From positions 5,296 to 69,295 of the IMG/VR virus record IMGVR_UViG_2882682849_000004: a stretch of DNA of 64,000 nt. The stretch is one strand, 5' to 3'. Made by a program: the position numbers and the translations under genes. Every line of letters begins with the position of its first letter. The stretch's first letter is position 1. The DNA is from a virus. Its lineage: Duplodnaviria > Caudoviricetes. The notes under the pieces were generated by a model. It saw only the letters and a list, made by a program, of their open reading frames with translations. It did not search any database and had not been told where the DNA came from. This document shows, in pieces, positions 4,231 through 15,675 of this stretch.

Positions 4231-4272
4231 AATTCAATAAAACAGAATTTAAATTTAGGAGGATAATGCACT

Positions 4273-4506
4273 ATGGAAGAAAAATTAAAAAGCGTTATTA
4301 AAGATATAGAAAGTCACGTTGAATGGGAGCAGGAACTTATCAACAAATGCTCCGTAGAGATCAAAGAATATGCCCAAAAATATGCTCCAGAAAATATGGT
4401 GGTATTCCTTCCTAGTAAAATCAAGGAATTAGAAGATGCAATAAACCGCAAGAAAAAATATATCGAGCAGCTGAATATGTTACAGTTTATTCAGAAAAAT
4501 AATTGA
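4273..4506 (+). CDS. Hypothetical coiled-coil protein
   Basis: 77-aa ORF with RBS AGGAGG, followed by terminator. Confidence 0.7.
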   Translation: MEEKLKSVIKDIESHVEWEQELINKCSVEIKEYAQKYAPENMVVFLPSKIKELEDAINRKKKYIEQLNMLQFIQKNN

Positions 4507-4541
4507 AAAAGTAAATAAAATACCATGGTAACGATTATAAA

Positions 4542-4568
4542 AAAGACGTTCTTTGTATGAACGTCTTT
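4542..4568. terminator. Bidirectional terminator between convergent genes
   Basis: AAAGACGTTC-N7-GAACGTCTTT. Confidence 0.7.
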
Positions 4569-4592
4569 CTTTGTGACAGCAGTGTTGCAGCA

Positions 4593-4853
4593 CTACTTGT
4601 CAGCCGATGAAATCAGAGAGCCGTTCTTTGTATGCAATATTTTAGGACTTTTATCTGGCACCCGCACAATCAATTCATCGAGTTTGCAATCCAGAGCCTC
4701 ACAAATGAGATCTAAATGTTCCAGATTTACTCTTTCCACTAACTCATGGTACAATTCATTGATTGTGTTTGGTCGGATACCTGTAGCTCTTGCCAAGTCC
4801 GCTTGCGTCCATCTGATTTCGCCGAGCTTAGTAGATAGTAAAATTCTTATCAT
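4593..4853 (-). CDS. HTH_26 / XRE-family regulator
   Basis: RWTQADLARATGIRPNTINELY...LDLICEALDCKLDELI. Confidence 0.88.
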   Translation of the reverse strand: MIRILLSTKLGEIRWTQADLARATGIRPNTINELYHELVERVNLEHLDLICEALDCKLDELIVRVPDKSPKILHTKNGSLISSADK

Positions 4854-5034
4854 ACGTCATTGCCCCTCCGCTATAAAATAACATTTTATGACACATAAAT
4901 GTATCTTTTGATATTTTATAGCGGCTTAGGTTATACATTATCAGATTATGATATTTGTTATACTTAGTATATGTGTATATAATCCATTAAAAGAATAAGA
5001 AAACCGCCATTTCTGGTGGCCTTCAAAATTATAT

Positions 5035-5310
5035 TTATTCCACATCTAGCAACTCTAATGCCTCCCAGTCCCAGCCTTCCCAGCCTTTCCCTTCAGCCCA
5101 GGCATCCATGTCCACGCCCAGCAGCTCCAGCGCATCATCAACACTCATGCTGTGATTGGTCAGTATGCCTCCGATAATCTCAAACACATTATCGTCTGAA
5201 TAGACCAGCAGCATATTTCCGTCATACTCTGCCTGCTCTATTTTTTCCAATACCTCTGCTCCATAATCTTCTAAAATCTGCTCTCTTGCGTATTCTCTCA
5301 TAATTTTCAC
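5035..5310 (-). CDS. Acidic hypothetical protein
   Basis: 91-aa ORF, very D/E-rich with W-rich C-terminus. Confidence 0.7.
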   Translation of the reverse strand: MKIMREYAREQILEDYGAEVLEKIEQAEYDGNMLLVYSDDNVFEIIGGILTNHSMSVDDALELLGVDMDAWAEGKGWEGWDWEALELLDVE

Positions 5311-5429
5311 CTGTCAGCCGTTCCGGTTGCCCTTTCCTAAATTTATTTGCTTTGTATCCTCTAATATGCTATAATCTTTTTACAGTTGGGGCGGTGGCAA
5401 GCCCGCCCTTTCTGTGAACCCTTATTCTG

Positions 5430-5594
5430 CTATCTCTTTAATGCCTTTTCCAGTCTGTCCATGAGCCTTTTGTATTTCTTGTCGTATCTCTCGTTGTCCC
5501 CTGCTTCTTTGTACTCGTTTAATTCTTCCAAGTCCTCTTTGATTCCCTCCACAAAATCTTTGTATTGGTTGTCTGTCATTCCCATATGTTCCAT
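5430..5594 (-). CDS. Small charged hypothetical protein (54 aa)
   Basis: MEHMGMTDNQYKDFVEGIKEDLEE...; RBS AGAGAGG; promoter at 5645-5680. Confidence 0.7.
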   Translation of the reverse strand: MEHMGMTDNQYKDFVEGIKEDLEELNEYKEAGDNERYDKKYKRLMDRLEKALKR

Positions 5595-5651
5595 TTTTAC
5601 CTCTCTTTCTTTATGTATATCAAATATCTTGCCTTATCTGATAATACAAGT

Positions 5652-6090
5652 ATACACCTTTGTGTATTAGTTGTCAATACCAAAAATACATATTTGTGTA
5701 TTTATTTTTTATATTCCAAAATATCGCAAGGCTGACAATCCAGTTTATCACATAAATACATTATTGTATCTACTGCCACGTTTTCATTTTTAACAAGACG
5801 ATTAACCAGCGTAGGCGACAAATTAAAATTTTCTTTCTTCAAGTCCTGCTTTGTTATCCCTCTTCTTTTCATGGTTTCCCATAATCTACTATAAGATATA
5901 GAGCCACTATACACATTCTTTCTTTTATCTCCCATCTTATCACTTCCTTTTATTAATATTTCCTTTATGATACACCTTTATGTATTGTTTGTCAATTCGT
6001 TTTGTATTGTACACTTTGTGTATTTTCTACCAAAATTTAAATACACGTTTGTGTATTAAGTATATTGTAATTATATACACAATGGTGTAT
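5652..6090. promoter_or_regulatory. Cluster of ATACAC-N4-GTGTAT operators overlapping three sigma70-type promoters
   Basis: Perfect sites 5652-5667, 6041-6056, 6075-6090; one-mismatch sites 5686-5701, 5970-5985; promoters TTGACA-N17-TATACT (-), TTGACA-N17-TATCAT (-), TTGTAA-N17-TATTAT (+). Confidence 0.8.
5702..5935 (-). CDS. HTH_26 / Cro-C1 regulator, likely cognate repressor of the operators
   Basis: ISYSRLWETMKRRGITKQDL...LVKNENVAVDTIMYLCDKLDCQPCDILEY; operator in its own promoter. Confidence 0.88.
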   Translation of the reverse strand: MGDKRKNVYSGSISYSRLWETMKRRGITKQDLKKENFNLSPTLVNRLVKNENVAVDTIMYLCDKLDCQPCDILEYKK

Positions 6091-6099
6091 TATATAATC

Positions 6100-6300
6100 A
6101 TAGCAAAGGAAAGCAAGGAGGAAATGGCAGGGGAAGCGTAGCAAACGCATAAATCGTGAAACCTGTTAAAAGAGGTTAATAAACCGAAATGTCGAGCACG
6201 GGAAGGGCGTGCACCCTATAACAGGGCAACAGAGAAAACGGCGAAAGAACCCACACCGAGATGACACAGCACTTTTTCTTCGCTATCAAAGGAACGGAGG
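6100..6300 (+). ncRNA. Candidate structured 5' leader RNA with mini-ORF
   Basis: Hairpins GCGT/ACGC, AACCT/AGGTT, GCACG/CGTGC, CCCT/AGGG in ~200 nt; mini-ORF MAGEA* 6124-6141 behind AGGAGG. Confidence 0.4.
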
Positions 6301-6309
6301 ATATGGGAA

Positions 6310-6534
6310 ATGACAATGTATAAAGCAATCGTTACAGATAAAATGAACGGAAGAAAAGTCATCATAGAAAGTGAACATGATACAAAAGCTGAATTTATCC
6401 ATGATTTAAGGGCAAACGGCTACGCTGTAAACCCTATCAAGGTTAAGACTAAAGAGGTTTTTGAGTACATCATGAATCACACAAACTGCAACCCTTGGGA
6501 TTGGAAAGAAATCAAGGCAGTTCCAGCAGAGTAA
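6310..6534 (+). CDS. Hypothetical protein
   Basis: 74-aa ORF with RBS GGAGG. Confidence 0.8.
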   Translation: MTMYKAIVTDKMNGRKVIIESEHDTKAEFIHDLRANGYAVNPIKVKTKEVFEYIMNHTNCNPWDWKEIKAVPAE

Positions 6535-6582
6535 CCACACCACCCACCCGGCGGGGTTGTGCCGGGAGAAAGAAGGGAAGAT

Positions 6583-6828
6583 ATGATTAAATCAAAGGCA
6601 GACGCATTAGCATTTTTAAAATCACATAAAGAATTTTCCGACCAAGATTGGATAGAGGGCAAATTTTGGTTCAGATATGACGGGGTAGCAGAGCCGGAAT
6701 GCCTGCGGCATGATTATACAATCAACCACGAAACAGAAGGGATTATCGGCGTTATGGAAAAAGAAGCTGTTGATTATGTTTTCAGAAACAGAAAACGGCT
6801 GAATAAATTAGAGCAGGCGGCAGGATAA
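6583..6828 (+). CDS. Hypothetical protein
   Basis: ATG 6583 behind AGAAGGGA; MIKSKADALAFLKSHKEF... Confidence 0.7.
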   Translation: MIKSKADALAFLKSHKEFSDQDWIEGKFWFRYDGVAEPECLRHDYTINHETEGIIGVMEKEAVDYVFRNRKRLNKLEQAAG

Positions 6829-6841
6829 CACCTACCGCCTG
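6815..6841. terminator. Hairpin between convergent accessory and endolysin genes
   Basis: AGGCGGCAGG-ATAACA-CCTACCGCCT. Confidence 0.55.
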
Positions 6842-6850
6842 TTCTATTGC

Positions 6851-7936
6851 TCAAATACAGTCAAACAGTGATTGCATCTTTACAGCACTGCTAAGCAGTC
6901 GTACAATTTTATGCCCGTAGGACGCCCCGGCTTCTCCGGCCGCTTTCAGGCCCGAATATTTTTTTGTATCATATCCAGGTACCGCCCATTTACCAGATAA
7001 CTGCTCAAAAGTAGGGGCGCATCCTTTTGATACATACTTATACCGCGGATCCACACATGCCTGATTTAACGGCTTTGTTGTTGCATATGCCTTAAGATGC
7101 TGTATTTGCGCCCGGACTCCGGTTTGAGCGTCCGGGAAAGAATTACCAGGTACGCCGCCTGTAGCACCAAGGCCGGCATAATTATGCTGATTAGGCCGTA
7201 CATCACCGCCAAATTTAAAATATCCGGTCTCAATAAGGCTCTGGCAAAAGGCTCCGTCTCCCCTTATACCTTCTTTTTCCCCTTCTTCTAAAAATATTTT
7301 TGCCAGGTGCAGATATCCAGTCGCCCGGGGATTGCCCGAAAGGAGAAGATTGTTTAGCTGATCTGCCGCAGCAACACTCTGGCCAGTGATAGAGGTTCCT
7401 GCCGCCTCCCCCTGTACATGCGGCATTATGGCACTGCAGATTGCCTCCGCTATGATTTGTGGTCCAGCTGCCAAGTACCGGTTAACATCCGGCTCATTGT
7501 CGCAAAAACAAACCTCTATCAGCATGGCCTTTGCTTTGGTTTTACGGATTACGTACAGCCCTGATCCGGCCTTTACCCCGCGGTTGGTAAAGCCCAGCTT
7601 TGCTATATTACCGCATACATCCAGCGCATCCTGATACTGCCTGCCCTCATAAGTGTATACCTCAACGCCGTGGCCCCGCCCCGTGGATGCGTTAAAATGG
7701 ATGCTGATAAACCAGTCAAGATCCTGATTGTTTGCAAGCTGTACCGCTCTTGCAAGGTATACATCCCTGCTGGCGGCCTGGTCTATCGTACAGTCGATTA
7801 CCTTGATACCTTTTTGACGGAGCAGGGACATAAGGCCCTGCCCCACAAGACGGGTATGCTCCGACTCTTTGATGATGCCTACGGCCCCATATCCGGGGCC
7901 GCTTTTTGTGTGTCCACAGTTAATTCCTATTGTCAT
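6851..7936 (-). CDS. Endolysin: Amidase_3 plus glucosaminidase domains
   Basis: INCGH...ESE, ISIHFNA...GVEVY, MLIEVCF (amidase_3); AFCQSLIETGYFKFGG...HNYAGLG (glucosaminidase). Confidence 0.93.
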   Translation of the reverse strand: MTIGINCGHTKSGPGYGAVGIIKESEHTRLVGQGLMSLLRQKGIKVIDCTIDQAASRDVYLARAVQLANNQDLDWFISIHFNASTGRGHGVEVYTYEGRQYQDALDVCGNIAKLGFTNRGVKAGSGLYVIRKTKAKAMLIEVCFCDNEPDVNRYLAAGPQIIAEAICSAIMPHVQGEAAGTSITGQSVAAADQLNNLLLSGNPRATGYLHLAKIFLEEGEKEGIRGDGAFCQSLIETGYFKFGGDVRPNQHNYAGLGATGGVPGNSFPDAQTGVRAQIQHLKAYATTKPLNQACVDPRYKYVSKGCAPTFEQLSGKWAVPGYDTKKYSGLKAAGEAGASYGHKIVRLLSSAVKMQSLFDCI

Positions 7937-7973: not shown

Positions 7974-8219
7974 TTATTTGCTTTTTAAGGCTTTTAAGTG
8001 CTCATCTGCTGTGATAGCAGGCTGTGTAAAGCTGTTATTTTTCCACCAGGCCCACGCAGACGCCGCCGCCGTCAGTGCCATGGACACAGCTTGTCCGACA
8101 CCATCGTCTGTAAACGGCAGAGGACTGTACCCACTAATCGTCAGCACCTGATTAATCAGTGCGAACGCCAGAACCGCCGTTCTTACAATTGTTTCTTTTT
8201 CGATTTTCTTTTTTTTCAT
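7974..8219 (-). CDS. SPP1-type holin
   Basis: RTAVLAFALINQVL...PLPF...WAWWKNNSFT signature. Confidence 0.9.
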   Translation of the reverse strand: MKKKKIEKETIVRTAVLAFALINQVLTISGYSPLPFTDDGVGQAVSMALTAAASAWAWWKNNSFTQPAITADEHLKALKSK

Positions 8220-8241
8220 AGTTTTAATCCTCTCTTTCTCT

Positions 8242-8568
8242 TTATAAAAGTATCAGTAATGCAGTTACAACAGCGCCCACAATGGCACTAATGGCGGAAG
8301 TTATAATGGCCATTTTTATTTGTTTATGTGTTTCAGCAGGCTCTTTTTCCAAAATTTCCATTCGGTCACCAAGCTTTCTTTGTTCCGCAAGCATATTTTC
8401 CATGTTGACTGCCATTTTTTCTATTGAAACCGTCATGGAATTGATATGCCGACCGTTTTCTTCCAGCAGAGCGATCCTCCTGTTCTGCCGCGCATTTTCA
8501 GAATCTATGCGCCGGGCAAATTCTTCATGCTCGCTACGCGGAATATAACCATCCATAGTCTCCATCAC
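8242..8568 (-). CDS. XhlA-like lysis-cassette protein (coiled coil plus C-terminal TM helix)
   Basis: Coiled coil followed by AIITSAISAIVGAVVTALLILL; upstream of holin. Confidence 0.65.
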   Translation of the reverse strand: MMETMDGYIPRSEHEEFARRIDSENARQNRRIALLEENGRHINSMTVSIEKMAVNMENMLAEQRKLGDRMEILEKEPAETHKQIKMAIITSAISAIVGAVVTALLILL

Positions 8569-8593
8569 CTCCTTAAATATGAAAGTAAATAAA

Positions 8594-8612
8594 AAAGAGC
8601 CTTGAAGCTCCC
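8594..8612 (-). terminator. Weak hairpin plus U-tract just outside the left outer inversion site
   Basis: Minus strand GGGAGCTTCAAGGCTCTTTTTT. Confidence 0.45.
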
Positions 8613-8638
8613 ATTAACAACATAAATGATTAAATGTA

Positions 8639-8679
8639 TTAAATGATAATTTAAAGACGTCTTTTCAGGCTGGTGTTGA
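8639..8679 (+). repeat. Outer-left inversion site (inverted partner of 11969-12009)
   Basis: 8644-8679 matches reverse complement of 11969-12004 at 35/36 nt; core TTAAAT-GATA-ATTTAA at 8639-8654. Confidence 0.92.
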
Positions 8680-9019
8680 CACTTTGTTTAACAGGTGTCA
8701 AAGCTGTGGGTCAACACCAAGTGCAAAAACACCCACAGCAATAAGCACCGCCATACAAAAGATATTTACAGACAGATATAATGCTGGAGTTAACGCCGGG
8801 GTTGCAGCCAACAAAATCTCTTATGTAACTATTACAGCTAATATGCCGGGATATAAGTATGCTGACCAGGCAGGTGGTAAGGTAACCGGGACTCTTACGG
8901 CAAATATCTCAGGTAAAACGGTTACCAGCGTTTCCGGGGCACTTACGTTGCATTGTCAGTATGCTAAAACCGGGGTAACACAGGCCTATACGATACCGGT
9001 TACAATAAATATTTCATAA
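8645..9019 (+). CDS. Silent alternative C-terminal cassette (B) for tail-tip protein 11623-12150
   Basis: DNLKTSFQAGVDTLFNRCQSCG...RYNAG parallels DNLKTSFQDGVDTLYNKCKSCG...RYNAG; in-frame TGA at 8627 and no RBS, so no independent start. Confidence 0.88.
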   Translation, partial: DNLKTSFQAGVDTLFNRCQSCGSTPSAKTPTAISTAIQKIFTDRYNAGVNAGVAANKISYVTITANMPGYKYADQAGGKVTGTLTANISGKTVTSVSGALTLHCQYAKTGVTQAYTIPVTINIS

Positions 9020-9048
9020 ATGATCATTTTGGGATTAGCAGTGGTTAA

Positions 9049-9067
9049 ATAAATCTTTATTTAATAC
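9049..9067 (-). repeat. Inner-left inversion site (inverted partner of 11598-11616)
   Basis: TAAATCTTTATTTAATAC 9050-9067 is the exact reverse complement of 11598-11615; core (minus) TTAAAT-AAAG-ATTTAT. Confidence 0.8.
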
Positions 9068-9116
9068 GCCCGTTTCCCCTATATCTGGTATCATATCTTC
9101 AAAAACGGAGGATACC

Positions 9117-10109
9117 ATGAAAGAGCAATTTATTTGTGAAATCCTGCACCACCTACCTTCTTTTTCCTCTGACCAGCTATCAGAGATCAAAGATGCCATT
9201 CGCATTGTCCTATGCAAGTATGATCTGGAGGCCAAGGGCACATCCCTCCAAACCGTCAATAACACAAGCCTGCACTATCTGCAGATGTACCTGGAGTCCT
9301 GCGAGCAGGCCGGAAAGTCCAAAGGAACCTCCGGGCTTTACCGGTTCCACTTGTCCCACTTTTTGTCTTATGTAAATAAGGATATCTCCCAGATCACTGA
9401 CGATGATGTCTACACCTATCTGTACAATTACAGGCACAAACGTACTGTCAGCAACTCCTACCTTAACCAGATCCGGCTTATCCTCAACGGCTTTTTCAAA
9501 TGGCTCATTAAGCGGAGGGTGCTTACTGCCAATCCGGTTGACTCCATTGACTCCGTTAAATGCCAGAAGAAAGTAAAACAGCCCTTGTCCGCCGAAGATG
9601 TGGAGCTGCTCCGCTCCGCCTGTGAATCTGAGCGGGATCTTGCGATCGTGGAATGCCTTTACAGCACCGCTGTAAGGGCCTCTGAGCTCCTTCAGCTTAA
9701 CCGCTCTGACATTTCCTTTGCCAAAAATGATATAGTCGTCCTCGGTAAAGGGAATAAAGAGCGCGTCACCTACCTTAATGCAAGATCCCATATCCACCTA
9801 AAAAACTACCTGGGGCTGCGTACAGACGATAACCAGGCCCTGTTTGTAAGCAGCAGGGCACCCCACGAACGCCTTACCCGCCGGGGACTGGAAGACATAC
9901 TTAACCGGATTGCTGCCGCTGCAAATGTAAAAAATGTCCATCCCCACCGGTTCCGGCGTACCAGTGCTACTGACTTGCTCAATGCCGGCATGCCGATTGA
10001 ACAGGTACAGGAGCTGCTTGGCCATAAAAGTATTGAGACTACACGCATTTACTGTACGGTAAACCAGGAAGCCGTGAAACATAACCATAAGCGGCTCATG
10101 AATTTTTAA
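9117..10109 (+). CDS. Tyrosine recombinase (invertase) inside the invertible segment
   Basis: STAVRASEL, GKGNKER, HPHRFRRT, LGHKSIETTRIY; RBS GGAGG; opposite strand to late genes. Confidence 0.93.
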   Translation: MKEQFICEILHHLPSFSSDQLSEIKDAIRIVLCKYDLEAKGTSLQTVNNTSLHYLQMYLESCEQAGKSKGTSGLYRFHLSHFLSYVNKDISQITDDDVYTYLYNYRHKRTVSNSYLNQIRLILNGFFKWLIKRRVLTANPVDSIDSVKCQKKVKQPLSAEDVELLRSACESERDLAIVECLYSTAVRASELLQLNRSDISFAKNDIVVLGKGNKERVTYLNARSHIHLKNYLGLRTDDNQALFVSSRAPHERLTRRGLEDILNRIAAAANVKNVHPHRFRRTSATDLLNAGMPIEQVQELLGHKSIETTRIYCTVNQEAVKHNHKRLMNF

Positions 10110-10171
10110 GTCTCCATTTTCCAGCCTGCTTCTTTTCAGCCTGCCTCTGGGAGGCTTATACATTGTGCCTT

Positions 10172-10621
10172 TTATCCTGCTGACCGGAACAAGGTATAAT
10201 GCGGCCTTTCCCTTTTCCACATCCATGGACGCCACTTCCGGAATGCAAGATAATTCCCGTATCGCAGCCAGTCATCAAGTACAATACAGGCCACGGCCAG
10301 CAGAATCCAAAGCAGGAAATAATATAGGCATACCTGCCCCATCAGGTTAAACGGCAGGCCGGAATAATCCCATACATCCCAGCCCAGCCACAGGTTGATG
10401 ATACATCCCGTAAAAAATTCCAGCACTGTAATTATAACTGCCCCTATCACTGCCTGCTGCATCAATGCCAGTTCCCACGGGAAAAGATGCTCATTGAGAA
10501 ACCCAATGATTACAAAGCATAAACCGCCCAGGATAAACATTGTCCAGTGCGTCCTTCCCCGGCAGGCCAGCTCCAGCCATGTATATAACCTGCCTCCGAT
10601 TAAAAACAGCAATATCTCCAT
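10172..10621 (-). CDS. Four-TM membrane protein (putative ABC-transporter permease-like, CmpB-type)
   Basis: GRTHWTMFILGG...EFFTGCIIN...WDYS...PFNLMGQVCL pattern. Confidence 0.75.
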   Translation of the reverse strand: MEILLFLIGGRLYTWLELACRGRTHWTMFILGGLCFVIIGFLNEHLFPWELALMQQAVIGAVIITVLEFFTGCIINLWLGWDVWDYSGLPFNLMGQVCLYYFLLWILLAVACIVLDDWLRYGNYLAFRKWRPWMWKRERPHYTLFRSAG

Positions 10622-10627
10622 ATCGTA

Positions 10628-11503
10628 TTACACCTCCTGCTGTGCTTCCTGTGCGGCATACATATCAGCAAGCACCTCTGACCGGAATTCTGAAGGAATT
10701 ACCATGCCGTATGTTACTGCCTCTACGGATGCCTTATCCTCCAGGCTGTTAATATACCTCCGCAAATCCCGATAATAAGTTTCATGGTAAGTCCCGTATT
10801 CCATCGCATTTTTAATAATCAGCTGCATATCGGCGTTTGTAAAATAACGGCACGGATCATCCAAATCTGATGTATGCCATGGTATTTTTTCGTCTCCCGC
10901 AGCAACACTCGCCTGCAATGCCATAAGACGTTTCTGTTCATATTCCGCCAGGGCAAAATGCTCCATACTACCATCAGTTAATGCCACGTTAATACCGCCC
11001 TGCATTACGGCCTGCTGTGCTGCCTCCATCTCTGATATCTTTCTGGCCTTTACCTCTTCCAGCGGTTCCACGTATGTAAATTTCGCTTCAAACGCCGTGT
11101 CTCCGTTCACCACGCCCGCATCCGGAATTTCCGGATCCCATCCTGCAAATACATAGTTTTCATCCGAAACCGGAGAGGGGATAACCAAATCTTCAAAATT
11201 GCTCACAGTCTGCATTATATCTCCGTCTATGGTGCCTCCCTGACCACAGGTAAAAGCTACAGTCGGTACCGGTGCCGTATAAACGCTGCCATCATCTGAA
11301 AACTGTGCACCGCCCTCTGTCCTGAGGTATAATGTCTTAAATCCTGTATAATCCCAGGCATCATCTTCCTTACCCTCCCTAAAGAGAGTAAAACCTTTCG
11401 TTTTTACCGGAAATTCTCCGGTTATCTGCACTACATGCCGGTTCAGTTTTTCAAACTCTACTTCATAGGTGTTTTTTTCTCCGGCATATTTTAAATTAAT
11501 CAT
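10628..11503 (-). CDS. Tail-associated protein: InlB-B-like repeat plus DUF4376-like C-terminus
   Basis: YVFAGWDPEIP repeat-like segment; LEEVKARKISEM...HFALAEYEQ...YHETYYRDLRRYI C-terminus. Confidence 0.6.
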   Translation of the reverse strand: MINLKYAGEKNTYEVEFEKLNRHVVQITGEFPVKTKGFTLFREGKEDDAWDYTGFKTLYLRTEGGAQFSDDGSVYTAPVPTVAFTCGQGGTIDGDIMQTVSNFEDLVIPSPVSDENYVFAGWDPEIPDAGVVNGDTAFEAKFTYVEPLEEVKARKISEMEAAQQAVMQGGINVALTDGSMEHFALAEYEQKRLMALQASVAAGDEKIPWHTSDLDDPCRYFTNADMQLIIKNAMEYGTYHETYYRDLRRYINSLEDKASVEAVTYGMVIPSEFRSEVLADMYAAQEAQQEV

Positions 11504-11539
11504 ATCTTTTCCTTTCTCCCCAAAAGCGGGTAAAATAAC

Positions 11540-11555
11540 GGAGCCTTACGGCTCC
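11540..11555 (-). terminator. GNRA-capped hairpin downstream of the active cassette
   Basis: GGAGCC-GTAA-GGCTCC followed by GTTATTTT. Confidence 0.5.
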
Positions 11556-11597
11556 TGGTTATAGTTTCTAAATATATTTTTCTGTTCTGCCCATCCT

Positions 11598-11616
11598 GTA
11601 TTAAATAAAGATTTAA
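11598..11616 (+). repeat. Inner-right inversion site
   Basis: GTA-TTAAAT-AAAG-ATTTAA; inverted partner of 9049-9067. Confidence 0.8.
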
Positions 11617-11622
11617 TGATTT

Positions 11623-12150
11623 TTAAACAGTAAGGTTTATTACCCTCTCTGGCGTATACTGCCCGGGGCTGACATAGCCCGTACTGCTATAAGTAGTCGC
11701 AGCGCCTCCGTCAATGGATACGGATGCATGGGCATTTAAATTAACACGGCTATCCCCTCCACAGTTGCCCTTAACTGTTATTGTTACGGTATGCTTTACA
11801 TCTGTCTGGACGCCATAAGCGTTTGGATTAGCTTTTACATCATTTTGCCCTTGAGTTCTGCCAGCATTGTATCTGTTGGTATAAATGCTTTGTATGGCAT
11901 TAACAATTGCTGTAGGCGTTTTATCGGATGGTGTTACCCCACAGCTCTTACACTTATTATATAGTGTATCAACACCATCCTGAAAAGACGTCTTTAAATT
12001 ATCAATTAATTCATCAACCACGACTGCTGATGGCAGATTATCCGGATTGGTATTTGCCGCAACTTCCTCCTTAGTCTTCAATATCCTTTTCTCTGTATAA
12101 GCTAAATAAAACTTTTCTATTCCGTTTAAGATCTTTTCTGCCATTGTCAT
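11623..12150 (-). CDS. Tail-tip / receptor-binding protein with switchable C-terminus (cassette A expressed)
   Basis: 49-aa constant N-terminus then inversion site in frame; last gene of the tail-fibre block. Confidence 0.8.
   Translation of the reverse strand: MTMAEKILNGIEKFYLAYTEKRILKTKEEVAANTNPDNLPSAVVVDELIDNLKTSFQDGVDTLYNKCKSCGVTPSDKTPTAIVNAIQSIYTNRYNAGRTQGQNDVKANPNAYGVQTDVKHTVTITVKGNCGGDSRVNLNAHASVSIDGGAATTYSSTGYVSPGQYTPERVINLTV
11969..12009 (-). repeat. Outer-right inversion site, inside the coding sequence
   Basis: Minus strand TTAATT-GATA-ATTTAA-AGACGTCTTTTCAGG. Confidence 0.92.
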
Positions 12151-12410
12151 GGTCCCACTACCTCCTCTTCCTTGTTAAATATGCTGTTAATCTGTTCATC
12201 AGATATGTCCGAGTTCAGGAAATCATATAAAGACGTCCCGTCAGGCAGCCAGACAACACGGGCATCCGTGTGAAAGTAGCAGACATTTCCATTAGAATCC
12301 TGAAATTCAACTAATAAATATCTGCCATCAATAACCGCTCCCGTATTTGTATTATCTTCTGCTCCTGTAGCTGTACTATTAACTGTCCCCGTATTTGTAC
12401 TATCTTCCAT
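12147..12410 (-). CDS. Small tail-fibre-region protein
   Basis: 87-aa ORF, stop overlaps next start. Confidence 0.7.
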   Translation of the reverse strand: MEDSTNTGTVNSTATGAEDNTNTGAVIDGRYLLVEFQDSNGNVCYFHTDARVVWLPDGTSLYDFLNSDISDEQINSIFNKEEEVVGP

Positions 12411-12420
12411 TGTTGCCCTC

Positions 12421-13272
12421 CTATCTTGTACTTTTTACTGACGCATATATCTTTCCTGGCTGACGGACTATCTCCTTCCCATCTTCCAGATATACTACAT
12501 TGCTGAAAACTGCCTTATATGGGCTGTTGTCTGCCTCAAGCTCTGTTTTTTCTGTCTTTTCAACCCCGTACAAGGTCCCTGATACTGTGGGATCCTCCAT
12601 TCCGGTTATGTACCGGTCAAAAAAGATCATAATCACGCCCCTTTGAGTCGTGATAAAACCATATGCACACCCTTTTGTCCTCAAAGACGGCGGTTTGTAA
12701 GTAGTCTCTGTCATCAGGACAAACGGATCATCCGTCCCCGCAAAGCAGTTGCTCTTAAGATCCAGCAGGTGCCTTGCTATCTGTCCGAACAATTCTGATA
12801 ACGTATCTCCCGACTTAAGCTTTCCCCTTTCTTTTGGCACATTAAAAACAGAAGCGAACTCATATTCACGAGGATTATTTTCTGAGTCTGTCCGGTGTAC
12901 TTTAAATATTTTGCTGGTATCCTTAAGGAGCTCAAACAAAATTGTATTTTCTCCGTCCAGCTCATCAATTGTCCCTATCTTTACCCCGCCTTTTCCGGCT
13001 GCCTTTAAAGCTGCCACATCATGAAACAGCTTCAGGCATTTCAGGTCTGTGATGTGCTGTAAGGTATTAAACTGCCGGGATGTGGGGATGCCGTTGATCC
13101 CTCCCACGATAGCAGACCATCCGTCTGTCCAGTCTTTTATGCTGATGTTCTCGCGGCTCCCCGTATCTGCAAACAGGCTTTCAAAAAGTTCTTCCAAAGA
13201 TGCGCTGTTAATACTGCTTTCAGTTTCGACAGCAAGTCCGTTTTTTGTTTCCTTATCGCTACTTTCCATCAA
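12421..13272 (-). CDS. Putative tail fibre / baseplate-attached protein
   Basis: Follows DUF2612-like gene; GW..IVGGINGIPTSRQFN N-terminus typical of fibre attachment domains. Confidence 0.6.
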   Translation of the reverse strand: MMESSDKETKNGLAVETESSINSASLEELFESLFADTGSRENISIKDWTDGWSAIVGGINGIPTSRQFNTLQHITDLKCLKLFHDVAALKAAGKGGVKIGTIDELDGENTILFELLKDTSKIFKVHRTDSENNPREYEFASVFNVPKERGKLKSGDTLSELFGQIARHLLDLKSNCFAGTDDPFVLMTETTYKPPSLRTKGCAYGFITTQRGVIMIFFDRYITGMEDPTVSGTLYGVEKTEKTELEADNSPYKAVFSNVVYLEDGKEIVRQPGKIYASVKSTR

Positions 13273-13273
13273 A

Positions 13274-13876
13274 TCACTCCTCTCCTATGATATGCAAGAA
13301 CTTTCCTTCCCCAAATCCAAGTGCATCTTTATTCAGATCCCGGAATCCAAAAAATTCAAGCTCAAAAAACTTTAGATCCACGGATACGCCCCCCGGCTTT
13401 ACTGTCAGGCTGGTATTGTAAAGCATTTTGAGCATCCAGTCCTCAAAATCCGCTCCTACCATCAACTGGAAATGGGCCGGGTGGTCATTAAACTCTCTGT
13501 AATAGAGCAGCTTCATATTATACAAAAGCCGGCATACCTCAACCAATTCGGGAAAAGTGCAGGTATTGGCATTCCTCAAAGCCTTATACATGAGGAAAAG
13601 GCGGTACCTTTCATCGTCGATTACGTCAAAATCTATAATGCCGGCATATCTGGAGGATTCTGCCCTGGTAAGCACCACAATCTCGCCGGCACCGTCAAGC
13701 TGCCTCCCGAAAGCCGACTTTATGGAGCGCAGAGTCTCAAGATCATGAAGCGTTTTCCCTACTGCCTCCAGTTCCTCCGCAAACGCCCTTATCAGGACTT
13801 CAATATTATTTTTCCGCTTAAACTGCTCCGGAAGCTTCTCAAGAAAGCTTTCCACTATGCTGCCTGCATTAACCAT
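13274..13876 (-). CDS. DUF2612-like baseplate wedge protein
   Basis: AFGRQLDGAGEIV...DDERYRLFLMYKALRN...FFGF motif; after baseplate J. Confidence 0.75.
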   Translation of the reverse strand: MVNAGSIVESFLEKLPEQFKRKNNIEVLIRAFAEELEAVGKTLHDLETLRSIKSAFGRQLDGAGEIVVLTRAESSRYAGIIDFDVIDDERYRLFLMYKALRNANTCTFPELVEVCRLLYNMKLLYYREFNDHPAHFQLMVGADFEDWMLKMLYNTSLTVKPGGVSVDLKFFELEFFGFRDLNKDALGFGEGKFLHIIGEE

Positions 13877-15329
13877 CTAGCAACACCTCAATTCTGGCCA
13901 CATCAAAAAGCGCTTTCTGCCGGTGGCTTACTATTACGTTTCCCGGGGTATATTCTTCTTCCGAGGGAATATATTTTTCAGAAGCACTTGCAAAAGCCCT
14001 GATATCTACCATTGACACGCTGACCACACGGCTGTAAATATTGGCAAGAAATGTCTGCAGGTATACCGTGTCCCCTACCTGGAGGTTTTTGCTGTCCTCT
14101 AAGATGGACTCCTGTGTCAGCTCTATATAATTTGGCGCCATTGCTTTCCCTGCTTTGCCCGTAATTACTATACGCAGCCAGACATACAGATAATCCGGCC
14201 GGCTGAATCCAACCTTATGGATGTTGCCGAAGCCATCTGCAACATCCATGATAATGTTTCCATAAGCCCGGATTCCATTGGTTTTTTTCTGATAAATGGT
14301 ATTGGCTATTTCCCCGTCATCTCCGCCATCCACAATGATTTCCACTGATTTGGGCGGCCTTCCTTCTTTGTCGGTATCCTCCGTATCGTTTTCATACCCA
14401 GCTACCGACAATACATTATCCACGGAATTATATATCTCCGCGGTAATGCTCTCCACCATATTTTTTGATCTGGTGGCACAGCGCTTTACAAAAGTCTGCC
14501 TGGCCTCAATATCATCCGCTTCAAACCGGCCCGGCACAGGGGCTATGTCATTTTTTATCTCCCTGATGCCGGTATCCAGTGTAACCATTTCCCTTATGAG
14601 GCCGTCTGCAATAATAACCGGCCCGTACTCCATGCTCTCAAACAGAATATTGGAGGTAACGGAATCAATCAGCAGATTGTTTGATATGGCAAGCGTGTTG
14701 GAAGTCTGCTTATAAATATCCTCAATGATAAGGCATCCCTTTTCCAAATCCTCATTAACAGACATTCCCGCTTCTTCTATCATGTCTGCAAAAGCCCTGA
14801 TGATATCCTGTGCATTATCTTCCGGCTGCCGGGCATACTGCCATGTATTACGGTTAAGCGTAATATAAAATACGTCTATGCCGGACTCCATATAAGGCCG
14901 TATTTCTATCCTTCTGAAATTTTCACGCCCTATCACCTGTGTGTTGGTACACCGGAACATTTTTTCCGGATTGGTTGCCGATTTTATAAGCACCCCGTAA
15001 GGCACTATCGTATCATCCGGAGCAGTACAGGCAATCATATAAGTGGTACGGGAATCCCGCTCCCTGGTTATTCCGCCAAACTGCATTGCGTTGTCCAGGT
15101 TTCCGCCTTCCGCGCTCATGGTATACATGGCATAATAGGTATTCTCCGCTTCTTCCCACAGCTTCGCCACTTCATCGGAAAATCCTGTTACCAAGACATT
15201 TAGAAAAGACTGGGGATTAATTGTAATATCATATCCCCAGCCTTCCTTTAATCTTGCATATACATCATTTTTAATCTCATCCAGCCTTTTTCTCACAAAG
15301 CCGTTTCGGGTAACGCCATACTCACCCAC
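13869..15329 (-). CDS. Baseplate J/gp47-family protein
   Basis: GVTRNGFVRK..., AEGGNLD...GITR, PPKSVEIIVDGG; GTG start 15329. Confidence 0.88.
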   Translation of the reverse strand: MGEYGVTRNGFVRKRLDEIKNDVYARLKEGWGYDITINPQSFLNVLVTGFSDEVAKLWEEAENTYYAMYTMSAEGGNLDNAMQFGGITRERDSRTTYMIACTAPDDTIVPYGVLIKSATNPEKMFRCTNTQVIGRENFRRIEIRPYMESGIDVFYITLNRNTWQYARQPEDNAQDIIRAFADMIEEAGMSVNEDLEKGCLIIEDIYKQTSNTLAISNNLLIDSVTSNILFESMEYGPVIIADGLIREMVTLDTGIREIKNDIAPVPGRFEADDIEARQTFVKRCATRSKNMVESITAEIYNSVDNVLSVAGYENDTEDTDKEGRPPKSVEIIVDGGDDGEIANTIYQKKTNGIRAYGNIIMDVADGFGNIHKVGFSRPDYLYVWLRIVITGKAGKAMAPNYIELTQESILEDSKNLQVGDTVYLQTFLANIYSRVVSVSMVDIRAFASASEKYIPSEEEYTPGNVIVSHRQKALFDVARIEVLLDG

Positions 15330-15675
15330 GAAGCTCCACCTCCTTTTCAAATGTCTTCTCATTCGTCCGCAGCTGGAACTTCACTAGAGCCGTCCTTTTC
15401 TCCGGATTAAAAAAGATATCCATCACCGGAACCTCAAGCACATCATCCACATCCAGCATCTCCCTGATCAGCAGTTTTTTTATGCCGTCAATGTCAGGGT
15501 TCTTTATAAGTATTGACTCAAACCACGGGATCCCTTTTTCAGGATCAAATACCCATTCTTTAAAGAACCACCTCAGCTTTATGAGGGCCGCCTGCACCGG
15601 GCTTGTAACCAGTGATATGTCTCCTTCCTTCGTCAGCGCTATATCCCCTTCCCCGTCCAGCAGAATATCCTTCAT
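15322..15675 (-). CDS. Baseplate wedge / sheath initiator (gp25-like)
   Basis: MKDILLDGEGDI...EWVFDPEKGIPWF; position before baseplate J. Confidence 0.75.
   Translation of the reverse strand: MKDILLDGEGDIALTKEGDISLVTSPVQAALIKLRWFFKEWVFDPEKGIPWFESILIKNPDIDGIKKLLIREMLDVDDVLEVPVMDIFFNPEKRTALVKFQLRTNEKTFEKEVELRG

Follow-up and report, generated by a model that had tools for sequence, protein, structure and literature searches.

The DNA analysed here is a stretch of 64,000 nucleotides (nt) from a virus of the Caudoviricetes (IMG/VR record IMGVR_UViG_2882682849_000004, positions 5,296 to 69,295), referred to below as the window. The late operon of this myovirus-like prophage, located on the minus strand, contains an inversion region in which two nested pairs of inverted sites surround a single tyrosine recombinase gene. 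The outer pair lies inside a tail-tip gene and at the head of a silent, homologous C-terminal cassette, and the inner pair encloses the recombinase gene together with two late genes. Recombined forms of both pairs were found in public assemblies. The region is best read as a site-specific inversion switch, composed of two spacer-coded nested pairs and served by one XerC/D-like recombinase, in which the even states (no flip or both flips) are the working ones; a probability of about 0.7 was assigned to this reading as a whole.

Repeat pairs, crossover sites and cassettes

The features of the switch are listed by position in the window, strand and description (amino acids are abbreviated aa).

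8638-8654, plus strand: outer site A, core ATTAAAT-GATA-ATTTAA, an exact motif match at the head of the silent cassette
8642-9019, plus strand: cas1, the silent C-terminal cassette, in frame with the site and without a start of its own (stop codon 9017-9019)
9048-9067, minus strand: inner site B, core ATTAAAT-AAAG-ATTTATT, one arm mismatch (18-nt perfect repeat at 9050-9067)
9117-10109, plus strand: tyrosine recombinase gene, 330 aa, convergent with the late genes (PF00589, E 1.6e-37)
10172-10621, minus strand: membrane protein gene, 149 aa (PF06541, 2e-12; phrog_20274, 1.4e-37)
10628-11503, minus strand: DUF4376-like gene of tail-fibre type, 291 aa (PF14301, E 4.2e-5; phrog_1348 "tail fiber", 1.5e-6)
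11598-11617, plus strand: inner site C, core ATTAAAT-AAAG-ATTTAAT (18-nt perfect repeat at 11598-11615)
11623-12006, minus strand: cas2, the C-terminal cassette expressed at present, about 127 aa (stop codon 11623-11625)
11623-12150, minus strand: tail-tip gene, 175 aa, from the list of open reading frames (ORFs), downstream of the phrog_6 and DUF2612 baseplate genes
11994-12010, minus strand: outer site D, core ATTAATT-GATA-ATTTAA, an exact motif match inside the expressed gene
12007-12150, minus strand: constant N-terminal part of the tail-tip protein, 48 aa, from the ORF list and translation; conserved in homologues, whose C-termini are variable

The outer arms (8634-8787 and 11861-12014) form an inverted repeat of 154 nt with 78% complementarity, in which a core (8644-8679 versus 11969-12004) is complementary at 35/36 positions, with a sole mismatch at 8670/11978 and a longest exact stretch of 26 nt. 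The inner pair (9050-9067 versus 11598-11615) is complementary at 18/18 positions, and is situated 31 nt past the stop codon of cas1 and 8 nt past that of cas2, i.e. of the expressed gene. Exact inverted repeats of at least 18 nt were obtained in 3/200 first-order Markov simulations of the 8.5-kb region.

Exact matches to the motif ATTAAnT-N4-ATTTAA number 4 in the 64-kb window, for 0.04 expected: sites A and D, and site C (11600-11616) on both strands. Site B (9048-9065), which lies 49 nt ahead of the recombinase ATG, fits this motif with one arm mismatch. The architecture common to the four sites consists of 7-bp arms (ATTAAnT and ATTTAAn) around 4 central bases: GATA in the outer sites (A, D) and AAAG in the inner ones (B, C). 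Since the arms are the same and only the 4-nt spacer differs, the inner and outer pairs were considered as related, and the window has the sequence layout of two putatively heterospecific pairs (GATA twice and AAAG twice). The motif is the likely crossover core, rather than the nearby palindrome AAAGACGTCTTT, because in contig L047, a relative with four cassettes, the homology of the silent cassettes to the expressed gene begins exactly at its left arm. The palindrome AAAGACGTCTTT was ruled out as crossover core, the inner sites sharing only ATTAAnT-N4-ATTTAA with the outer ones.

Further candidate sites were rejected. A partial copy of the outer repeat (12222-12246, 80%), inside the 87-aa gene upstream of the tail-tip gene, is devoid of the core arms and was attributed to chance, and a core-like motif with one mismatch in the same gene (12175-12191) was treated likewise; neither is conserved in relatives. 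Scanning of JGI metagenome contigs and IMG/VR with the inner-site 20-mer returned 89 and 9 matching stretches, respectively, of which 0/98 were similar to the locus; these are chance matches.

Read from the site to its stop codon, cas1 is in frame, and its fusion to the constant N-terminal part gives an open frame of 173 aa (translation and simulation). Natural proteins of this composition exist (P0015 and P0093), which are 99% identical to cas1 over that part. The locus thus shows the arrangement of a programmed inversion: one copy of an inverted repeat lies within the expressed gene, and the other opens a homologous cassette that is silent, lacks a start and is in frame.

An earlier note on this DNA had placed the outer pair at 8644-8679 and 11969-12004 with 35 of 36 matching positions, had described a perfect 18-bp inner pair just after the stop codon of each cassette, enclosing the recombinase, membrane and DUF4376-like genes, and had described a silent homologous cassette behind the outer site; all of this stood, the three enclosed genes being matched by PF00589, PF06541 and PF14301. 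Its description of the inner pair as unrelated to the outer one had to be abandoned in view of the common arms.

Recombinant junctions in public assemblies

Independent contigs were gathered by exact-protein look-up and aligned to the window (labels L and P designate contigs and proteins, respectively); such contigs inform on the presence of isomers, and not on their frequencies. Parental linkages are carried by the window, L015, L023 and L024. At the outer pair, L020 (ENA ERZ14864800) joins the A flank, through the core, to cas2, and continues with the parental linkage of cas2, site C and the DUF4376-like gene; L044, also from ERZ14864800, joins the N-terminal part of the gene, through the core, to cas1. 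These two contigs are both reciprocal products of the outer flip alone, in one sample, and bound the outer crossover between 12004 and 11979. A further outer recombinant is L040, in which the N-terminal part is followed by a single-nucleotide polymorphism (SNP) of cas1 type.

At the inner pair, cas2 is joined via the 18-nt site to the recombinase flank in L016 (SRR25373282) and L019 (SRR29412553). In three contigs of close relatives (L025, L026 and L182), the N-terminal part is followed by cas1, the site and the DUF4376-like gene, which is the double-flip arrangement. Together with L178 and L181, from a second lineage described below, both orientations are present in nature for the outer pair (L020, L044) and for the inner pair (L016, L019, L025, L026, L178, L181, L182), and recombination of both pairs in nature is confirmed.

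The ends of the contigs from Logan, whose assembly graph uses k=31, provide additional information. At the outer pair, ends are found at 8669 (L037) and at 11979 (L041, L046), the last base before the SNP that separates cas1 from cas2; L016 begins at 12004, and L040 and L045 end exactly 30 nt beyond 12004. At the inner pair, L175 ends at 9050, L019 and L021 begin at 11615, and the other end of L019 is exactly 30 nt (18 + 12) into the cas2 side. These branch-point ends (L016, L019, L021, L037, L040, L041, L045, L046, L175) come from seven runs. The 30-nt overhangs agree with k=31 (k-1), a length that exceeds both exact repeats (26 and 18 nt), and the repeats alone therefore cannot make graph branches or chimeras. 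The contig ends fall exactly where a graph of k=31 must branch if isomers coexist, which fits mixed isomers within samples.

Site variation among relatives

In a second lineage (L178-L181), which has a different A-type flank (A') and an inner segment only 77-82% identical to that of the window, A' and cas1 are followed by the recombinase gene in L179 and L180 versus the DUF4376-like gene in L178 (6.8 kb, 9.5x) and L181. The pseudo-N-terminus of the A' flank precedes cas1 in proteins P0092 and P0094 and cas2 in P0095 and P0003. From these junctions it follows that the inner pair is conserved and used in relatives.

Contig L047 (4800-9950), whose recombinase is 96% identical, is arranged as a> <b, recombinase> <membrane <DUF4376, c> <d. 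Its four cassettes carry four cores, all with the spacer AATA, and the core of cassette b lies 50 nt before the recombinase ATG, matching the position of site B. As judged from this layout, L047 is a full shufflon version of the reduced arrangement of the window. Cassettes a and c of L047 are 99% identical over 300 nt.

In relatives with a 54-57% identical recombinase, a tail-to-tail pair of cassettes is followed by the DUF4376-like gene, the membrane gene and the recombinase gene, all in one direction; here the arms read ATTAAGT and the spacers AGGG or AGTG. In more distant homologues of the tail-tip protein, from mouse gut, two cassettes adjoin each other tail to tail, and this simple layout occurs in the more distant relatives L027-L036, L053 and L070.

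Taken by locus, the spacers are AATA (L047, L049, L065, L066), GATA (L051), AGGG (L054) and AGTG (L070), with conserved arms. Partner sites match in spacer within each locus, and spacers vary between loci (window, L047, L049, L051, L054, L065, L066, L070); such covariation speaks for partner matching through the central bases. Junctions of A with B, C with D or A with C numbered 0 among about 30 contigs, which is a small sample, and the ACCG site of L178 (see below) is not accounted for by the model.

One relative has lost the switch. Contig L038 (25 kb; 4260-6900) is without the segment corresponding to 8619-9902 of the window, and so without sites A and B, cas1 and 786 nt from the 5' end of the recombinase gene, and retains the 3' remnant of the recombinase gene, D, C (inner 18-mer) and the late genes. 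The ends of the deletion are not at sites, and L038 is, by its gene content, a deletion-locked derivative. Terminal repeats of a mobile element were ruled out as an explanation of the inner pair, the DUF4376-like and membrane genes being fixed late-operon genes in this switchless relative, where the inner core is also retained.

Recombinase

Besides PF00589, the recombinase matches PF13495 (2.6e-10) and an NCBIfam model of XerA type (229 bits versus a cutoff of 220), and its closest matches in the PDB are XerC-like 4a8e, XerA 5hxy and 1a0p. When aligned to 4a8e, its catalytic set is complete (R187, K214, H277, R280, H303, Y312). It has the features of the simple XerC/D-like tyrosine class (R-K-H-R-H/W-Y, SAM-like core-binding domain, no arm-binding domain of lambda type). 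PF00589 is the sole recombinase match in the segment, where no resolvase fold, as in serine invertases, was detected. This recombinase is most likely the enzyme that flips both pairs, as suggested by where its gene lies, by the presence of recombinase and sites together in relatives with as little as 54% identity, and by their joint loss in L038. A search of GTDB with the recombinase gave matches of at most 45% identity only, and blastn with 8200-12500 gave no match in deposited phage genomes.

A conserved TGGTATCAT (extended -10-like) is present within 9068-9116, between site B and the recombinase start, and also in L047. A corresponding -35 element would be located within the core site, so that the inner segment may carry the recombinase promoter along when it flips. 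The recombinase gene is fully overlapped in antisense by long ORFs in the late-operon direction, at 9210-9797 (195 aa) and 9798-10235 (145 aa), which were picked over the recombinase by gene callers in L019 and L175 and are probably spurious.

Isomers and proposed mechanism

The four isomers were simulated. In the even isomers, the DUF4376-like and membrane genes follow the direction of the late operon, to which the recombinase gene is antisense. In the single-flip isomers, whichever pair has flipped, the recombinase gene is sense directly behind the tail-tip gene, and the DUF4376-like and membrane genes are antisense. The double flip is a clean cassette exchange. The tail genes are co-directional with the DUF4376-like and membrane genes in all contigs that link them (window, L015, L038, L047, L061, L065, L066); this agrees with the even states being, as is probable, the working ones, two flips together making a clean exchange of cassettes. 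The earlier note had argued that the outer flip alone would turn the late genes antisense, that the inner flip would restore them and that four isomers would result, with the double flip as a clean exchange, and the simulation bore this out. It had also named conservation of the inner 18-bp pair in relatives as a check, and the pair proved to be both kept and recombined in the second lineage.

In the proposed mechanism, the recombinase would bind the arms of all four sites, and strand exchange would take place only between partners with matching central bases; this restriction is proposed because tyrosine recombinases generally require homology in the overlap region. The outer flip would swap the last ~125 of the 175 tail-tip residues for those of the silent cassette, reversing all that lies between, and the inner flip would reverse only the 2.5-kb middle segment (recombinase, membrane protein, DUF4376-like protein). 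Expression of the reversed genes would presumably change with their orientation, and we infer that the inner flip may exist in order to "repair" the arrangement left by the outer one. As a more specific proposal, to which we give somewhat less than even odds, the recombinase would use the common arms together with a 4-nt "address" to sort its sites, which would amount to a natural form of recombinase-mediated cassette exchange; the position of its own gene, sense to the late operon in single-flip states only, would shift the population to the two clean-exchange isomers.

Such a switch would let a temperate gut phage change its probable host-recognition tip, by two independent flips under a single enzyme, without scrambling the late genes located between its expressed and stored copies. 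It also explains the assembly breaks of such prophages at this place in metagenomes. If the choice of partners is indeed spacer-coded, AATA, GATA, AAAG, AGGG, AGTG and ACCG would be natural orthogonal inversion sites for one small recombinase, useful for genetic circuits.

Weighing of alternative explanations

Several observations count against the switch as read here. In ERZ14864800 the single-flip (outer-only) form is the assembled one (L020 and L044, ~4x coverage), and single-flip genomes are not vanishingly rare; the double flip was seen only in close relatives (L025, L026, L182), and not in a long contig of the exact phage. Isomer support comes from assembled contigs, and sample heterogeneity could partly correspond to co-existing strains, the end of L023 being an SNP branch. 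With 4 bp, the spacer is shorter than the overlap regions of tyrosine recombinases, which usually have 6-8 bp, and the overlap region may extend into what is here called the "arms". Lastly, the recombinase-side site of L178 (4951-4967) carries a third spacer (ATTAAAT-ACCG-ATTTAAT) and adjoins unrelated genes (4970-6802: a 36-aa ORF, DUF4406 and three helix-turn-helix genes), with no cas2 or tail genes.

The outer-only form in ERZ14864800 would be expected if the region were instead a 2x2 combinatorial switch of four functional types, in which the inner flip is an independent ON/OFF toggle of the DUF4376-like and membrane genes and couples the recombinase to late transcription. The pairs do appear able to flip independently, and inner junctions occur with either cassette; however, the two genes are fixed in the late operon even in switchless L038, and their co-direction with the tail genes in all long relatives argues for a constant need, so that this explanation was judged unlikely. 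The inner sites could also be orphan cores left from a four-cassette shufflon of the L047 kind, their flipping being a neutral by-product: cassettes b and c of L047 sit exactly where B and C sit, its four sites carry like spacers, and its b core has the same place before the recombinase gene as site B. Against this derivation, the inner cores are 18/18 identical with a spacer unlike that of the outer pair, and show no change even in lineages with flanks of no more than 77-91% identity, which suggests selection on a matched, orthogonal pair; we regard it as decidedly unlikely.

All the evidence comes from metagenome assemblies, some contig ends of which are SNP branches between strains (L023), and a locus no longer active would show junction variants if old fixed strain differences, or products of rare homologous recombination, were mixed in metagenomes. 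This is very improbable, given that the same four kinds of junction reappear in two lineages and at least 7 runs, with reciprocal products in one sample, that an intact recombinase with its catalytic residues lies inside the segment, and that exact homologies of 18 and 26 nt are poor substrates for RecA. The low coverage of several contigs (2-4x) could even suggest that the junctions are chimeric contigs assembled at repeats; but repeats below the k-1 of the assembler and overhangs of the length set by k=31 speak against it, as do the recurrence of the junctions across assemblers, samples and lineages and the presence of reciprocal products, and next to no weight was left to such an artefact. 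The inversion switch with two spacer-coded nested pairs was therefore retained as the preferred reading.

Tail-tip protein and other genes of the locus

In alignments of tail-tip proteins, a conserved stalk of ~60 residues with two cysteines is followed by unrelated C-termini. The AlphaFold2 model of the protein has a mean pLDDT (predicted local distance difference test) of 67.7, with a partly confident helical stalk (residues ~42-112) and a C-terminal four-strand beta part of low confidence. A role of the tip in receptor binding or host recognition is suggested by gene position and variability only. In phages that share only 68-81% identity in the neighbouring genes, cas1 is still 99% identical (L025:1071-1505, L182:1470-1903; P0093), and ends of cas2 type occur behind N-terminal domains of quite another kind (P0002, 205 aa); it thus seems that cassettes pass from one phage lineage to another.

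Along the direction of transcription, the order of genes is phrog_6 baseplate wedge, DUF2612, a 283-aa gene, an 87-aa gene, tail-tip, DUF4376-like and membrane gene, beyond which come the convergent recombinase gene (plus strand), the start-less cassette (plus strand), an XhlA-like gene, a holin and an endolysin. The DUF4376 (PF14301) match scores 24.4 bits, just under the cutoff of 25. Related loci, found for example in Eisenbergiella, point to a Lachnospiraceae-type gut bacterium as host. The remaining features are as follows.

8595-8612, minus strand: predicted terminator-like hairpin just past site A, before the XhlA-like gene
11540-11555, minus strand: terminator-like hairpin between site C and the DUF4376-like gene, within the inner segment, predicted by consensus scan
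13274-13876, minus strand: DUF2612 gene (family match)
13869-15362, minus strand: baseplate wedge gene (phrog_6)

The terminator-like hairpins are on the late-operon strand at both edges of the switch, where late transcription may be attenuated.

Comparison with known systems

The systems of the invertases Gin, Cin and Min (Mu, P1 and p15B) resemble the present one in that flipping provides the constant N-terminus of a tail fibre with one or another C-terminus, which in their case alters host range; a simple tail-to-tail cassette layout like theirs is that of L027-L036, L053 and L070. They are serine invertases that work with an enhancer and Fis, with the recombinase outside the segment and one site class, whereas the enzyme here is a tyrosine recombinase. 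In the R64 shufflon, the tyrosine recombinase Rci performs multiple inversions at short sfx cores of one spacer class, the target being pilV. Type I restriction-modification (hsdS) invertons include the hsd loci of Mycoplasma pulmonis, on which HvsR acts at vip and hrs sites. Spacer mismatch is exploited in engineered heterospecific lox and FRT sites (flip-excision, FLEx, and recombinase-mediated cassette exchange, RMCE), where it makes site pairs orthogonal for one enzyme, the principle also proposed for the window; this is a laboratory design, and no natural phage example with two spacer classes was found in the literature searched.

In the cod/ivr hsdS locus of Streptococcus pneumoniae, the tyrosine recombinase PsrA acts on three pairs of inverted repeats (IR1, IR2 and IR3), giving multiple isomers (PMC4948785; PMC7096588), and in hsdS loci a tyrosine invertase surrounded by concentric pairs of repeats is a standard arrangement (PMC4948785). 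These invertons share with the window one tyrosine recombinase and several inverted pairs arranged around it. Their repeats are all coding, yield chimeric proteins and belong to classes unrelated in sequence, whereas here a single core occurs with different spacers.

Rin, from prophages of Bifidobacterium, was the first tyrosine invertase to be reported from a phage; it shuffles the C-termini of a receptor-binding protein at 11-bp sites (Mavrich et al. 2018, PMC6109161). By description, the two systems are alike in their phage-encoded, XerD-like tyrosine invertase without arm-binding domain, in the joining of a constant N-terminus to alternative C-termini of a tail protein, and in their short asymmetric sites, one of which is directly past the 3' end of the expressed gene. 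The Rin system has several (at least 3) cassettes and one class of 11-bp sites (rix), and its recombinase flanks the array, whereas the window has two cassettes and two spacer classes and holds the recombinase centrally, along with two late genes; nearer to Rin is L047, which has a single spacer class and four cassettes. The rix site TTCCCTAACCC is clearly different from the AT-rich core found here.

The closest counterpart in topology is the pglX gene of the type 1 bacteriophage exclusion (BREX) system of Lacticaseibacillus rhamnosus, where two nested inversions are required between working variants and the recombinase lies inside (Milman et al. 2023, PMC9881135). The nested "swap then repair" layout, which the earlier note did not know from any description, had thus already been published for pglX. 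In pglX variants with a single inversion, the recombinase takes the place of the downstream sequence and would be co-transcribed with the operon, such variants representing 5/176 reads (PMC9881135). Nested pairs, a recombinase within the inner pair and its sense placement behind the target gene after a single flip are thus common to both systems (PMC9881135). DUF2612, present here upstream of the tail-tip gene, is also listed among the neighbours enriched beside inversion targets (PMC9881135). The differences are that in pglX both repeat pairs are inside one coding sequence and the protein's C-terminal end is constant, whereas here the inner pair is non-coding and reorients two whole genes, and that the target is a defence methylase in pglX and a phage tail protein here.

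Both the topology and the enzyme class have precedents, since the nested inversions of pglX and the tyrosine invertase Rin are already published; no description combining a non-coding inner pair that reorients whole genes, two spacer classes and a phage tail setting was found in the literature searched. These are the variant features of the present locus: an inner pair that is non-coding and reorients whole genes, one core with two spacer classes per locus, and its setting in a phage tail operon. It represents a second, independent case of a nested-inversion logic so far described for a defence gene, and how such a system keeps its unstable intermediates rare could thereby be studied in a phage.

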